Origin: Escherichia coli
GTDB taxonomy: Bacteria; Pseudomonadota; Gammaproteobacteria; Enterobacterales; Enterobacteriaceae
Length of the DNA: 45,604 bases
Strand: one strand, 5' to 3'
NCBI RefSeq assembly: GCF_003334335.1
Contig: NZ_QOWQ01000036.1
Positions 10,530-16,091 of this stretch are shown one piece after another (the first letter of the stretch is position 1; each line of letters opens with the position of its first letter). The position numbers and the translations under genes were made by a program. The notes beneath the pieces were generated by a model. It searched no databases. It was not told the DNA's origin and worked only from the letters and a program-made list of their open reading frames with translations.

Positions 10530-13163
10530 TCAGGCAAGCCGGTAACTGAACGTCCGTGACTGGCCGGGTAAAAAAGGCCCCGATAGATTTGAACCTTGAT
10601 TTTCCTCGGTGGTAATGTGTTCATCCATCATCGTTTCTGAGCAAGAAATCACCTCGCGACTGAAAGCAACAGTCGCATCACAGGTTGCTGATTCAGCCGG
10701 ATTAAACAGCCGTAAAATCACTTCTTGTCGGTCTTCAGCTTTCTTAAGTGCGCTTATCAGGCATCCCACTGGGGGCATTTTCAACAAACTATAACTTTCC
10801 GGCACGTTGAATCCGGCTTTGTTGAGCTTCATCACATCCCATGGGATTTTGTTGTAACACTGTACTGGAGTCAGCCATGCTCGCGCCTGCTGAGCTACAC
10901 CAGCGGCGGTTGGCGTACCGGTATAACTCAATAAACTTAGGCGACAAGAAAGCAGACCACGTAGTTGTGAGTCCGGGACTGGCATTTTAATTCCCGAAGG
11001 CCGCCCAGGCCTTAAAAGCAGATCTTCTTTGCCCAGTAAGCCCACGCCACGCAGCAACGTAATGGCAAAGGTTTTCTTCTCTTCACCGATGACTTCAAAT
11101 TCACGTAACCCTTCGCTAAAGACAGCCATGCCGTTACGCCCTTCCTGTAAGGCAACATAGTTGAGCATATTCCATACCGGAACCGGCGCTTCTTTCCAGC
11201 CTTCTTGCTGCCAGTTGTTCATTGCACTGTCGTTCACGGGGCGCGTTAGCGAACCAAACTGCGTATCTGCCAGAACACTGTCGGTGTTAAAAGGTGTAGG
11301 GACCAGGACACGAAGGCGATGATCGTCAGCCTGGTTATCAAGATTGATATCCACATCAATACGCCTGCTGTTATGACTAAGAGTGACAACCAACACCACC
11401 CCTACTCTGCCAGTGGATTGCCGGGCGCTGCGTTCTGACAAATTGAGCGGCACTGCCATGTCATAGCGGATAACAGCCCTGCTCTGCCAGGCTTCATGAA
11501 TAATATCGCATTGCGGTTTCGCGTTCGCTGCGGTAATTACCCACTCTTCTTTTGCGGGTGAATAGTCATATTCATCACCATCATCAGAGCTTTCTTCAAT
11601 TTGCAATACCCGGTCATAGCGCACACCGCTGTCTTTATCTACCAGTTGCAGAGAACCATCCTCATTGAGCGCAATTTGCCAGAAAGCATTTTCCAGTATC
11701 CCTTCAGCGTCACTTTTTGCCGCAATTACGTTGCCAGGCTGATTCGCTTCGATATAAAGCGTGCGATAGCCCATAGAAGGGACAATCTGGTTGATCTGTA
11801 TATCAAACTCCATAAAGGGATCGTAATTACCGTAATGAACTATTTGCCGATCGATTAGGCCTGGATCGATCTCACGGGCATGGCGAATAAAATACGGTAC
11901 AGGCTGACCGCGATCGTCCCGCAAATTAAACTGGCTGGCGCGCAGCCGCACAGTGGTGTTGATAACTTCTTCACGCGGCCAGGGCATCAGGTTAAACAGG
12001 ACGAGTTTGTCGGCGTCGCTCTGCGGCATGTTGTCGGCAATTTTGCGCATGTAGAAACGAATCAGATTATCCGCCATGTCTTCAGCCAGTTCGAAGCGGG
12101 CGACGATTTCGCGATGAACTTTGTCACTACAGCAGCAGCCGATACTGTCGTGGGCATGATTTTTTAAGATCTCTTTCCACATTTTCTCCAGCAAGCCGTG
12201 GTGGTATTCAAAACCCAACGTCCAGGCCAGTGTTGCCAGCGGTTCCAGCAGATTAACAATCTTATTTTCAATACGCGCGTGGGCAATTTTGATATCCATA
12301 CGCGTAGAACCGATGGTGCGATGCACGCGCATATATTTGCCATCAATAAATTCCCCTTTCAGGGTTGCCAGATTATCTCGCTGCGCTTCGATCTTCTCAA
12401 ATACCTCTTCAAAGCGGCTCATCACAAACTTACGTTGAGGGTAGATCTCACGTAGCTTATCCATCACTTCGAAGATATTTTGCTGCAATGGCATCTGGTC
12501 ATGCCCATTCGGCAGCAAAATCTCTTTGGTTACAGACGCTTTTTCCAGCACGTCAAAATAACTGTCGAGGCGTTTACGTAATCCGTTTTCGTCGGCAGGT
12601 AAGTACTTACCGATGGCGTAGCCCAGCGGCAGCACCTGCGCCGTCACTTCGCTACCGTCACTGCTTTGCCACAAAAACTCGGTTTTATCAGTACCGTGGC
12701 GCTCCGAACATCCGCGCCAGAACATGGTGCGGGTAATGCCAAATCCATTGTAGATATGCGGCAGTTGCCCGGACATGCCAAAGGAATCTGGTAAATAACC
12801 TATTTTCATCGGCTCGCCAAACGCGAGGCAGTCACGCATTCCGTACATCAGATTACGGACGATGGATTCCGCAGAAACAATCGTGGTATCGGTCTGGGTA
12901 TACCAGGGGCCGATAATCAACTTGCCGGCTTCTACCTGTTTCTTCACACGGTCTTTGTTTTCCGGTTTCACCGCGAAATAATCTTCGAGGATCGCCGTTT
13001 GCCCGTCGAGTACGTAATATTTGTATTCGTTGTCCTGTTCCAGTCGGCACAGGATCTCTTCCATATTATTGACCAGCAGAATACGTGACTCTTCGGTGGT
13101 GAAATACCACTCTCGATCCCAGTGCATATGCGGGGTGATGTGAACGCGAGATACTGCTTTCAT
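10530..13163 (-). CDS. mngB: Alpha-mannosidase / mannosylglycerate hydrolase (GH38)
   Basis: 877-aa ORF following mngA on the same strand. Confidence 0.92.
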
Positions 13164-13180: not shown

Positions 13181-15157
13181 TTATGGCATTACGCCATCAG
13201 TCAGATAGTTGCCATGCTTAACCGCGTGACGCCGCCACATCAGGAGAATTGCAGTCGAGATTGCAGCCCCCACCAATGCCGCGCCAAACCAGCCAATTGC
13301 CGCCATAACACCGCCCGCGCCATTATCATGAAGTAAAAAGAGCGAGAAAATGCCGGCACCGGGTGTCGAAAGGCCGATATTCATCGCACCGACAATAGCG
13401 CCCGTTACCATAGAGCCCAGCACAAACGAACCAATAACCCGCAGCGGATCTTCAATCGCCATCGGGATCGCCCCTTCGGTAATACCTGCCAGCCCTAACA
13501 GCCAGGTGGATTTCCCGGTCTCAATTTCAAACTCTTTAAACAGGCGCGGTGCGAGCATCGTGGAAGCGGTTACGGTAAATGCCGAAACCATTTTGACGGA
13601 GGCGAAAATGGCATACGGGCCGTAAACGCCGTTCGCCATTGCGCCCAGGCAGAATGCATAAGCGGCTTTATTCACTGGCCCTCCAAGGTCAAAGGAACAC
13701 ATAAAACCGAGAATGGCACCCAGCAACAGCGCGTTACTTCCTGACAGACCGTTCAGCCAGGCGGTAAGCGAGTTATTGATCCAGGCGACAGGTTCCCCCA
13801 CCACAAACAGCATCAGACTGCCCGCTCCCAACGTACCGAGCACCGGGTAGAGATAAAAAGTCAGGAATCCATTGAATTTACTGCTAAGACGCAAGTGATT
13901 TTTCACCCAGCGCATCAAGTAACCGGCTATCAATCCGCCAACGACCGCGCCGAGAAACCCGGAGCCGATCATGTTGGCGGCAAGTCCAGCCGCAAAGCCT
14001 GGCGCTAACGCCGGTTTATCTGCCAGAGAATAGGCGGTATAGGCCGCGAGCACCGGTACCATCAAAATTCCGAGCAGCCCGCCGCCCAGCTTGCGGTACA
14101 TCCACAGCCAGGAGTTTTCTTCATTAAACAGATCTTGTAGCCCGAAGATTTGCGACAGTAATACCGCGACCGCCAGCACCGTGCCCCCCGCGACAATCAA
14201 CGGTACGGCAAAAGAGATTCCGCTCAACAGTGCCTGTTTCAGCTCCGTTTTGACACTTTTCACCGGTTGCGTATCTTGCTGTACGGTACGCGTCTCATCG
14301 CTACGCTTGAGGGTAAGCGCTTGTTGGATCAACGCTTCTGCATGGCGAATCGGCTCGGCAACAGGCACTGAAAGCGCGGGAATGCCATTAAAACGCTCAC
14401 TCTCCTTGATGGCGACTTCAGCCGCAAAAATACAGGCGGTTGCACTATTGAGTTGATCCGCCGTTAAACGCCCTTCAATGCCGTTAGCGCCTTGTTTTTC
14501 AACGTAAACATTTACGCCGAGTTTGCGTCCGGCTTTTTCCAGATATTCCGCAGCCATATAGGTGTGAGCAATACCCGCCGGACAGGCCGTTACGCAGACG
14601 ATAGTTGGCGCGTTGGAAAAAGAGGCAGAAGGTTGCGTGCCTCCCTTGTCATCCAGCGCCGAGAGCAACTCATCAGGCGTCGTCGCCGACTGTATACGCG
14701 CCCGAATCTCATCATCCGCAAGGCGCGTGGTCAGCGCTGTCAGCAGTTGCATATGCGTAGTACCCGCTTCATTGGGGGGAATCGCCAGCAGCACCACTAA
14801 ATCAACTGCTTCCGGGCCATCAACGCCTTCCCACTGAAGCGGCTCGCTGAGTGTGGCGACCGCAAACGCCGCTTCTTTTACCGCAGCAGTTTTGCCATGC
14901 GGCACAGCCAACCCTTCACCTAAGGCGGTCGGGCCAAGGCTTTCACGGCGATACACTTCTTCCAGAAATTGCTCAGTACTGGAAATTTTCCCCAGAGCAG
15001 CAAGACGTTGAGTCAACGCGTGGATGGCCTCTTCACGGCTGGTAAAGCGCGCATTCAGACACAACGCATCGCGGTGGGTCAGAGTCGTCAGATTCATCAT
15101 GATCCTCACTTGATCGTTTTTATAGTCGCGCCAGTGTGCCCGATAAAACAATACCAT
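13181..15157 (-). CDS. mngA: PTS 2-O-alpha-mannosyl-D-glycerate-specific EIIABC component
   Basis: 658 aa; N-terminal EIIA-like domain, EIIB, then polytopic EIIC domain. Confidence 0.92.
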
Positions 15158-15265
15158 TATGTGATCAATTTCACTTGATTAAAATTATTTGTATTGTATT
15201 TGTATTATTTACAGGATGAATTTATCGGGCATAATGGTTAAATTCGTATTAATGAGATACTAAAA
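15158..15265. promoter_or_regulatory. mngR / mngAB divergent promoter-operator region
   Basis: 108-bp AT-rich intergenic region with direct repeats GTATT-GTATT-TGTATT (15191-15206). Confidence 0.5.
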
Positions 15266-15988
15266 ATGGGACACAAGCCCTTATACCGGCAGATTGCCGA
15301 TCGCATTCGTGAACAAATTGCGCGTGGCGAGCTTAAACCTGGCGATGCGTTACCCACTGAATCAGCGCTACAAACAGAGTTTGGCGTCAGCCGGGTTACG
15401 GTGCGTCAGGCTTTGCGCCAGCTAGTCGAGCAGCAGATCCTCGAAAGCATTCAGGGCAGCGGGACTTACGTCAAAGAAGAGCGGGTCAATTACGATATTT
15501 TTCAGTTAACCAGTTTTGATGAAAAACTGTCGGACCGTCACGTCGATACACACAGTGAAGTTCTGATATTCGAAGTGATTCCGGCTGACGATTTTCTTCA
15601 GCAACAGCTACAAATCACCCCGCAGGATCGTGTGTGGCATGTGAAGCGCGTGCGCTATCGCAAGCAAAAGCCAATGGCGCTGGAAGAAACCTGGATGCCG
15701 CTTGCGTTGTTCCCGGATCTCACCTGGCAGGTCATGGAAAATTCGAAATATCACTTTATCGAAGAAGTGAAGAAAATGGTTATCGATCGTAGCGAACAGG
15801 AAATCATTCCTCTGATGCCAACCGAAGAGATGAGCCGTCTGCTTAATATCAGCCAGACAAAGCCGATTCTTGAAAAAGTATCGCGTGGATATTTAGTTGA
15901 TGGTCGGGTGTTTGAATATAGCCGCAACGCTTTTAATACCGATGACTATAAATTTACCCTGATAGCGCAGCGAAAATCATCGCGATAA
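15266..15988 (+). CDS. mngR: GntR/HutC-family transcriptional regulator MngR (FarR)
   Basis: 240 aa; N-terminal GntR-type wHTH (VSRVTVRQAL), UTRA-type C-domain. Confidence 0.92.
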   Translation: MGHKPLYRQIADRIREQIARGELKPGDALPTESALQTEFGVSRVTVRQALRQLVEQQILESIQGSGTYVKEERVNYDIFQLTSFDEKLSDRHVDTHSEVLIFEVIPADDFLQQQLQITPQDRVWHVKRVRYRKQKPMALEETWMPLALFPDLTWQVMENSKYHFIEEVKKMVIDRSEQEIIPLMPTEEMSRLLNISQTKPILEKVSRGYLVDGRVFEYSRNAFNTDDYKFTLIAQRKSSR

Positions 15989-15990
15989 GC

Positions 15991-16016
15991 ACAAAAAAGG
16001 CCATCATACGATGGCC
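15991..16016 (-). terminator. Intrinsic terminator ending the sucABCD transcript (shared palindrome downstream of mngR)
   Basis: Stem ggccatc/gatggcc (15999-16016), loop atac, followed on the minus strand by a U6 tract (plus-strand aaaaaa 15993-15998). Confidence 0.8.
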
Positions 16017-16091
16017 AACCATGTCGAAACCGACAGCCCTTCGCCATTCCTGTAGAGGGAAGCGGCGAGGGCTATTTCTTATTACAGATAT
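15993..16091 (-). ncRNA. sdhX: sucD 3'UTR-derived sRNA (SdhX/RybD-type)
   Basis: ~100-nt 3'UTR between sucD stop and a strong terminator; a 3'UTR sRNA is known at this position in enterobacteria. Exact 5' end not determinable from sequence. Confidence 0.55.

Follow-up and report, generated by a model that had tools for sequence, protein, structure and literature searches.

A conserved tandem direct repeat as the probable main operator of MngR (FarR) in the divergent mngR-mngA control region of Escherichia coli

The operator of FarR/MngR in E. coli was reportedly footprinted by Quail, Dempsey and Guest in 1994 and is said to be curated in RegulonDB. FarR is the former name of MngR and, as its site is quoted secondarily, binds direct repeats of TGTATTAWTT (Quail et al. 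1994, as cited in PMC4494728). Suvorova et al. count FarR among the HutC regulators with sites that depart from the GT-N4-AC palindrome, and NagQ is cited with FarR as an exception to the palindrome rule (PMC4494728). Typical HutC dimers such as NagR place two symmetry-related DNA-binding domains on a palindrome or pseudo-palindrome (PMC4333415). According to a summary of the original study, deletion of mngR up-regulates mngA and mngB only (Sampaio 2004, as summarised in PMC12842492). The endogenous mngR promoter has been treated as MngR-regulated via two sites in a preprint (bioRxiv 2024.12.09.627516), and on synthetic promoters RegulonDB-curated MngR sites were among the most strongly repressing, in a study where the dynamic range of repressors was about 100-fold (PMC11806353). 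No MngR site sequences were found in the supplements of PMC11806353, bioRxiv 2024.12.09.627516 and PMC4494728.

Three described systems resemble MngR in different respects, NagQ and NanR being its nearest analogues. NagQ, by its description, is a HutC-subfamily regulator that uses direct repeats of a near-identical box (TGGTATT vs TGTATT); it differs from MngR in its regulon (N-acetylglucosamine) and in the taxa that carry it. NanR of E. coli is, like MngR, a GntR-family repressor of a sugar operon that acts on tandem direct repeats of a GTAT-containing hexamer and on no palindrome. Three NanR dimers bind its (GGTATA)3 operator (PMC8012715), and its motif is given as TGGTATAW (PMC4494728). NanR nevertheless belongs to the FadR subfamily with an FCD effector domain, whereas MngR has a UTRA domain, and the NanR operator contains three hexamer repeats while that of mngR contains two conserved boxes at 11 bp with a dispensable third copy. 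The NagR/DasR regulators share the GntR wHTH and UTRA domains of MngR and, as it does, act as sugar-responsive repressors at their own divergent operon; their dre sites are GT-N4-AC palindromes, however, and the mngR-mngA spacer is without such a palindrome.

The repeat analyzed here shares its gene, promoter region and motif with the FarR/MngR operator of E. coli as that operator is known from the secondary citation; it is the same element and nothing essential differs. We add to the earlier description a core of the form TTTGTATT-N3-TTTGTATT, an inverted box close to the -10 of mngA and a CRP-like site, the last two of which were not found described in the literature searched.

Anatomy and conservation of the repeat

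The window, that is, the whole 45.6-kb stretch of DNA that was analyzed, is the mngB-mngA / mngR / sucDCBA region of the E. coli chromosome according to its RefSeq annotation (Table 1). MngR has an N-terminal GntR wHTH domain (Pfam PF00392, E = 2e-24, residues 6-69) and a C-terminal UTRA domain (PF07702, E = 9e-38, residues 91-229), and by this combination it is a HutC-subfamily regulator. It matches the NCBIfam equivalog NF007292 with 524 bits. A position in the window is converted to NC_000913.3 by subtracting it from 781141 and to the older U00096.2 numbering of RegulonDB v7 by subtracting it from 780364. In NC_000913.3, the predicted mngA start thus falls at about 766015, the curated mngR start at 765926 and the second, predicted mngR start at about 765899. 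Positions 15090-15275 are the same as in K-12 MG1655 except for one base at 15181. The small RNA SdhX (b4764), which derives from the sucD 3' UTR, lies at 15991-16091 on the minus strand in the K-12 annotation, directly past the mngR stop codon and convergent with mngR. No Rfam match at E <= 1 was found at positions 14900-15500.

Table 1. Features of the mngR-mngA region, in window coordinates
Feature	Position	Strand	Basis or remark
mngB	10530-13163	-	Annotation
mngA, PTS EIIABC for 2-O-alpha-mannosyl-D-glycerate	13181-15100 (likely true start; or 15097; K-12 15157)	-	
Predicted mngA -10 hexamer, CACACT in E. coli, CACAAT in most species	15133-15138	-	Predicted start near 15126
Box A, GGTATTGTTT (TGTATTRTTT in most species), inverted operator-like box	15146-15155	-	2 mismatches to TGTATTAWTT; -29 to -20 of predicted mngA promoter
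CRP-like site, TGTGATCAATTTCACT, centre 15167.5	15160-15175		1 mismatch to TGTGA-N6-TCACA
Curated mngR promoter, RegulonDB mngRp, sigma-70	15179-15208	+	-35 TTAAAA (K-12 TTGAAA), 18-nt spacer, -10 TATTAT 15203-15208, start G 15215
Box B, TTTGTATT, upstream copy of direct repeat	15188-15195	+	Exact repeat of box C at 11 bp; conservation
Middle GTATT, 3-nt spacer GTA plus beginning of box C	15196-15200	+	Not a conserved element
Box C, TTTGTATT (15199-15206) extended to TGTATTATTT (15201-15210), downstream copy	15199-15210	+	Fits FarR/MngR consensus TGTATTAWTT
Second sigma-70-like mngR promoter, TTTACA (15208-15213), 16 nt, CATAAT (15230-15235)	15208-15235	+	Predicted start near 15242
15-codon upstream ORF (MNLSGIMVKFVLMRY)	15216-15263	+	Begins 1 nt from curated mngR mRNA 5' end
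Box D, CGTATTAATG, single operator-like box	15245-15254	+	44 bp (four 11-bp periods) downstream of box C; 2 mismatches to TGTATTAWTT
mngR, HutC-subfamily GntR repressor, 240 aa	15266-15988	+	RefSeq, Pfam, NCBIfam

A sequence-only reading of this DNA had described tandem GTATT repeats at 15188-15207. The sequence is indeed present, although the 23-nt string quoted for it, tttGTATTGTATTTGTATTattt, spans 15188-15210, a slip of 3 nt. On the plus strand, TGTATT starts at 15190, 15195 and 15201, with the GTATT copies at 15191-15195, 15196-15200 and 15202-15206. Tandem Repeats Finder reports a period-11 array at 15186-15206 with 1.9 copies and a 100% match, and a repeat search finds the 10-mer TATTTGTATT twice and without mismatch, at 15186 and 15197. 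The recognition unit is not three tandem GTATT copies but two TTTGTATT boxes 11 bp apart, designated B and C, and the middle copy is lineage-specific.

The arrangement was compared with chance expectation in dinucleotide-preserving shuffles of the spacer. Direct matches of 10 nt or more, spaced by 4-15, arose in 37 of 5000 shuffles, and three copies of one 5-mer within 17 nt in 24 of 5000. At about 0.5-0.7% of shuffles, the test on this single sequence is moderate evidence for the repeat. The word TGTATT is not enriched in the whole window (16 found vs 21 expected), and even with up to 2 mismatches TTGTATT-N4-TTGTATT occurs nowhere else in the 45.6 kb, so the tandem pattern is unique in the window.

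Conservation was examined by scanning one genome per species, which identified MngR orthologues (64-84% protein identity) at 38 loci, in every case divergent beside an mngA orthologue; the genera include Citrobacter, Enterobacter, Kluyvera, Buttiauxella, Atlantibacter, Serratia and Edwardsiella. Every one of these 38 loci, in which mngR stands beside mngA, retains boxes B and C and the 11-bp period. The spacers of 31 enterobacterial species were aligned, with a mean column identity of 48%. In box B, columns 15188-15194 do not vary and 15195 has at least 90% identity; in box C, columns 15200-15203 and 15205 are invariant and 15204 and 15206 are at least 90% identical. The two boxes are the most conserved non-coding bases of the region in this alignment, and this conservation is the strong evidence for the reality of the repeat. 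The 3 nt between the boxes vary freely among species (TAA, AAA, GAA, CTA, ATT and others), and they are AAA in two divergent E. coli strains, 98889 and TUM1857. Since this spacer varies so freely, the middle GTATT is an accident of the GTA that most E. coli and a few further species have there. The same GTA creates a good -10-like hexamer, TACAAT, on the mngA-sense strand inside the operator (15193-15198, minus strand), which most other species do not have. In E. coli TUM1857, mngA is disrupted and annotated as two partial pseudogene fragments, with mngR and the operator region intact. Overall, the region was matched in 3868 of 5426 complete E. coli genomes, and about 29% were without any match.

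MngR recognition and the mngR promoters

The consensus TGTATTAWTT, as quoted in PMC4494728, was searched for in the window. Its only match with 0 mismatches in the 45.6 kb is TGTATTATTT at 15201-15210, that is, box C. Copies with 2 mismatches to this secondarily quoted consensus cluster around it, at 15190 (box B), 15245 (box D) and 15146 on the minus strand (box A). At up to 2 mismatches, the 10-mer as quoted is not enriched over the window (69 found vs 70.9 expected). By the same count, a wider MngR regulon in the window, for example near the sdh/suc genes, finds no support. The boxes protected in the footprint would be those described here, as read from the secondary citation of the consensus.

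The promoter region of mngR (farR) holds boxes B and C as identical copies at a distance of 11 bp. Window positions 15215-15235 agree with the curated mngR 5' end, Gatgaatttatcgggcataat, and its start point is the G of GATGAATTTATCGGGCATAAT. The promoter scan recovers the curated -35/-10 pair, and TTGAAA-18-TATTAT is given for mngR in the literature (PMC3946193). Relative to the curated start, the two boxes cover -27 to -9, the -10 TATTAT included, which is a classical layout for the occlusion of RNA polymerase. The one base at which the window differs from MG1655 falls in the -35 of this promoter: position 15181 is A in the window and G in K-12 MG1655 and all sampled E. coli, and the A turns TTGAAA into TTAAAA. 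Exact matches to the window around 15181 were found in 0 of 5426 complete E. coli genomes, the best match being 100 of 101 bases; the A could be a private mutation or a sequence error.

A second sigma-70-like promoter was found further downstream. TTTACA-16-CATAAT fits 10 of 12 consensus positions, making it the best consensus match of the region in the promoter scan, and TTTAC(A/T)-16-(C/G)ATAAT is present in 32 of the 38 species loci. The -35 region of the curated promoter, on the other hand, is the least conserved stretch of the alignment, and the conserved TTTACA-16-CATAAT disagrees with the curated start point at 15215. Box C abuts the -35 of the second promoter, and box D would fall at about +4 to +13. 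Regardless of which promoter is used, occupancy of boxes B and C would repress mngR. Autorepression of mngR is thus explained, because the repeats cover the curated -10 and abut the TTTACA-16-CATAAT promoter. The proposal that the repeat serves MngR for autoregulation is borne out by its match to the consensus as cited, the report of two sites, its conservation across genera and its overlap with the curated -10; we regard the autoregulation of mngR through the tandem repeats as well founded.

A single box downstream resembles the operator as well. About two thirds of the loci have the pattern S-GTATY (S = G/C, Y = T/C; mostly GGTATTA) at a distance of 44-46 bp from box C. Box D is probably the second of the two sites through which, according to the preprint (bioRxiv 2024.12.09.627516), MngR regulates the mngR promoter. 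Translation of the 15-codon upstream ORF is reported to reach about 10% of that of mngR, mutation of its AUG to raise mngR-lacZ by 52%, and the ORF to be mildly inhibitory (PMC4965119). Its sequence is not kept in other species or genera in the alignment, which argues against a functional peptide. A 17-nt inverted repeat joins 15131-15147 and 15221-15237 (arms CCAGTGTGCCCGATAAA and TTTATCGGGCATAATGG, 88% complementary). The arms hold the predicted mngA -10 and the CATAAT on the mngR side, making the divergent core promoters near mirror images; a GGCA(C/T)AAT-like motif is found on both sides in other species, too.

Taken together, we consider the repeat to be the main MngR (FarR) operator in the control region that the divergent mngR and mngAB units share, with a probability of roughly 0.85. 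The repeat itself is an already known, ordinary regulatory element, and in essence the sequence-only reading was correct to call it an operator.

It could be argued instead that the repeats are promoter architecture, namely A+T-rich -10/UP-element-like DNA with phased T-tracts (an intrinsic bend, an H-NS target), and that their repetitive look is a by-product. TATTAT at 15203-15208 is after all the curated mngR -10, the mngR-mngA spacer is 70% A+T with TTT tracts every ~10-11 bp, and H-NS is flagged in this spacer (PMC3946193). As box C overlaps a -10 and abuts a -35, part of its conservation could also come from promoter function. However, neither a -10 nor bent DNA needs two identical 8-mers at an exact 11-bp period across genera with a free 3-nt spacer. 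The box moreover recurs inverted at 15146-15155 and again at 15245-15254, and box C is an exact match to the FarR consensus in its cited form. We therefore judge promoter architecture to be an improbable explanation, though the most probable of the alternatives.

A slightly less probable alternative is that MngR has its sites in other parts of the spacer, for instance at boxes A and D alone or at a cryptic palindrome, and that the tandem boxes serve another protein. Typical HutC dimers do take palindromes, and boxes A and C form an inverted pair. The sequence-only reading had itself justified the operator by the GT...AC repeats of HutC regulators, a rationale that fails here: neither GT-N4-AC nor GTMTAKAC occurs in 15101-15265, where the HutC palindrome is thus absent, and FarR is cited as a direct-repeat exception. 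The sole GT...AC with 2-8 nt between its halves in the spacer is GTATTATTTAC, with N7. The same absence of palindromes speaks against binding elsewhere, as does the cited motif, which is explicitly a direct repeat with box C as its only exact match. Boxes B and C, furthermore, are the bases that have been conserved most.

That the repeat is a functionless product of chance or slippage, a microsatellite, is highly improbable: slippage does occur, since a 6-bp TTGTAT has been gained in about 20 E. coli genomes, and the single-sequence statistics are only moderate, but the outer boxes are invariant in the 31 aligned species despite largely randomised flanks, and only the spacer and the extra copy vary. 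The gain is seen in E. coli G1/2, where the extra TTGTAT is inserted in the operator at window position 15194/15195 and results in four GTATT copies. This allele was matched at 99% or better by about 20 of 3276 complete E. coli genomes. A phase-variable microsatellite was likewise considered and rejected, as the 6-bp gain is confined to only ~20 of ~3276 genomes and the outer boxes never vary.

The mngA side of the spacer

The extent of the spacer depends on the start codon of mngA. The K-12 start at 15157 (658 aa) has no Shine-Dalgarno sequence. In contrast, GAGGA at 15108-15104 precedes the ATG at 15100 (MMNL...) and that at 15097, the latter being the start chosen by PGAP. In 36 of 39 loci, the alignment with the mngA orthologue opens at the first or second residue of the MMNL form (the remaining three are truncated), and MngA matches NCBIfam NF007293 over positions 1-639 of 639. 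The true start is thus probably 15100 or 15097, the K-12 start being 19-20 codons too far upstream. The divergent spacer had been taken as 15158-15265, which fits the mngR start at 15266 and the K-12 mngA start at 15157; since the mngA start most likely lies at 15100/15097, the real spacer is probably 15101-15265, and longer than was assumed.

Within this longer spacer lies TGTGATCAATTTCACT, the one site of the whole window that fits TGTGA-N6-TCACA with no more than 1 mismatch. Its TGTGATCA and TTTC show no or almost no variation among species. CRP binding or cAMP-CRP dependence at mngA is mentioned neither in the CRP genomic SELEX paper nor in the other literature searched. A -10-like hexamer stands at a fixed distance from the CRP-like box, with A at position 2 and T at position 6 in 37 of 37 loci each. 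The predicted start at ~15126 puts the centre of the CRP-like site at -41.5. The promoter scan detected no -35/-10 pair on the mngA strand and no -35 at this promoter, as expected for an activator-dependent one. These features suggest that the mngA promoter is of the class II CRP-dependent type. The literature search found no published start point for mngA. The Cappable-seq supplements have no entry at the predicted start coordinates in either K-12 system, but these are short listings and their silence is not evidence of absence.

Between the CRP-like site and the predicted -10 lies box A, the inverted operator-like box. In all loci scored, it keeps a fixed distance of 9 nt to the CRP-like box, and its ATAC (15151-15154) is invariant or nearly so in the alignment. 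The repeat search pairs it with 15186-15200 in an inverted repeat, I2. By comparison, boxes B and C fall at about -64 to -84 when counted from the predicted mngA start. Judged by position, box A is the candidate operator for mngAB repression, which would depend on it at least in part, and it is better placed than B and C for that role. The tandem repeat by itself would not be the obvious mngAB operator, so the earlier proposal that it represses mngAB finds no support here. Over-expression of SlyA raises mngAB 3.4-fold; SlyA was dismissed as a binder of the repeats, because nothing links this effect to them.

A possible arrangement of the control region

We propose that MngR would bind TTTGTATT-N3-TTTGTATT at 15188-15206, with the two copies one helical turn apart and the downstream one extended to TGTATTATTT. 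Bound MngR would cover -27 to -9 of the curated mngR promoter and abut the -35 of the second, so that RNA polymerase would be excluded and mngR autorepressed. Box D would be the second site of the mngR promoter. Repression of mngAB would most probably be exerted from box A, between the CRP-like site and the -10 of a class II type promoter, perhaps cooperatively with the tandem boxes 35-46 bp away. By analogy, the head-to-tail boxes could be read by one dimer with re-oriented domains on flexible linkers, or by two dimers side by side as in NanR. The data show the anatomy of the sequence, its conservation, its agreement with the consensus as cited and its place relative to the curated start point; we infer the identity of the footprinted boxes, the mngA promoter, its CRP dependence, the cooperativity and the reading of the direct repeat by a HutC-type dimer.

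More tentatively, these elements may form a conserved four-box switch, a scheme that is rather doubtful as a whole. In such a switch, B, C and D would control mngR, and box A, between the CRP site and the mngA -10, would let MngR compete with CRP-RNA polymerase, perhaps stabilised by the tandem boxes 35-46 bp away. The E. coli-specific third GTATT and the rare 6-bp TTGTAT insertion would tune operator strength between strains, and a HutC dimer would read the head-to-tail boxes one helical turn apart. This CRP-linked four-box architecture has not been described as such and is offered as a modest, testable hypothesis.

As the operator has reportedly been footprinted and curated already, the present analysis is of little consequence beyond careful annotation. 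What the comparative reading contributes is a definition of the recognition unit, two TTTGTATT boxes at 11 bp with an incidental third copy, and the prediction that the control point of mngAB would be the inverted box together with a CRP class II promoter. The mngR operator offers a compact and well-conserved case of a HutC-family repressor that reads direct repeats.
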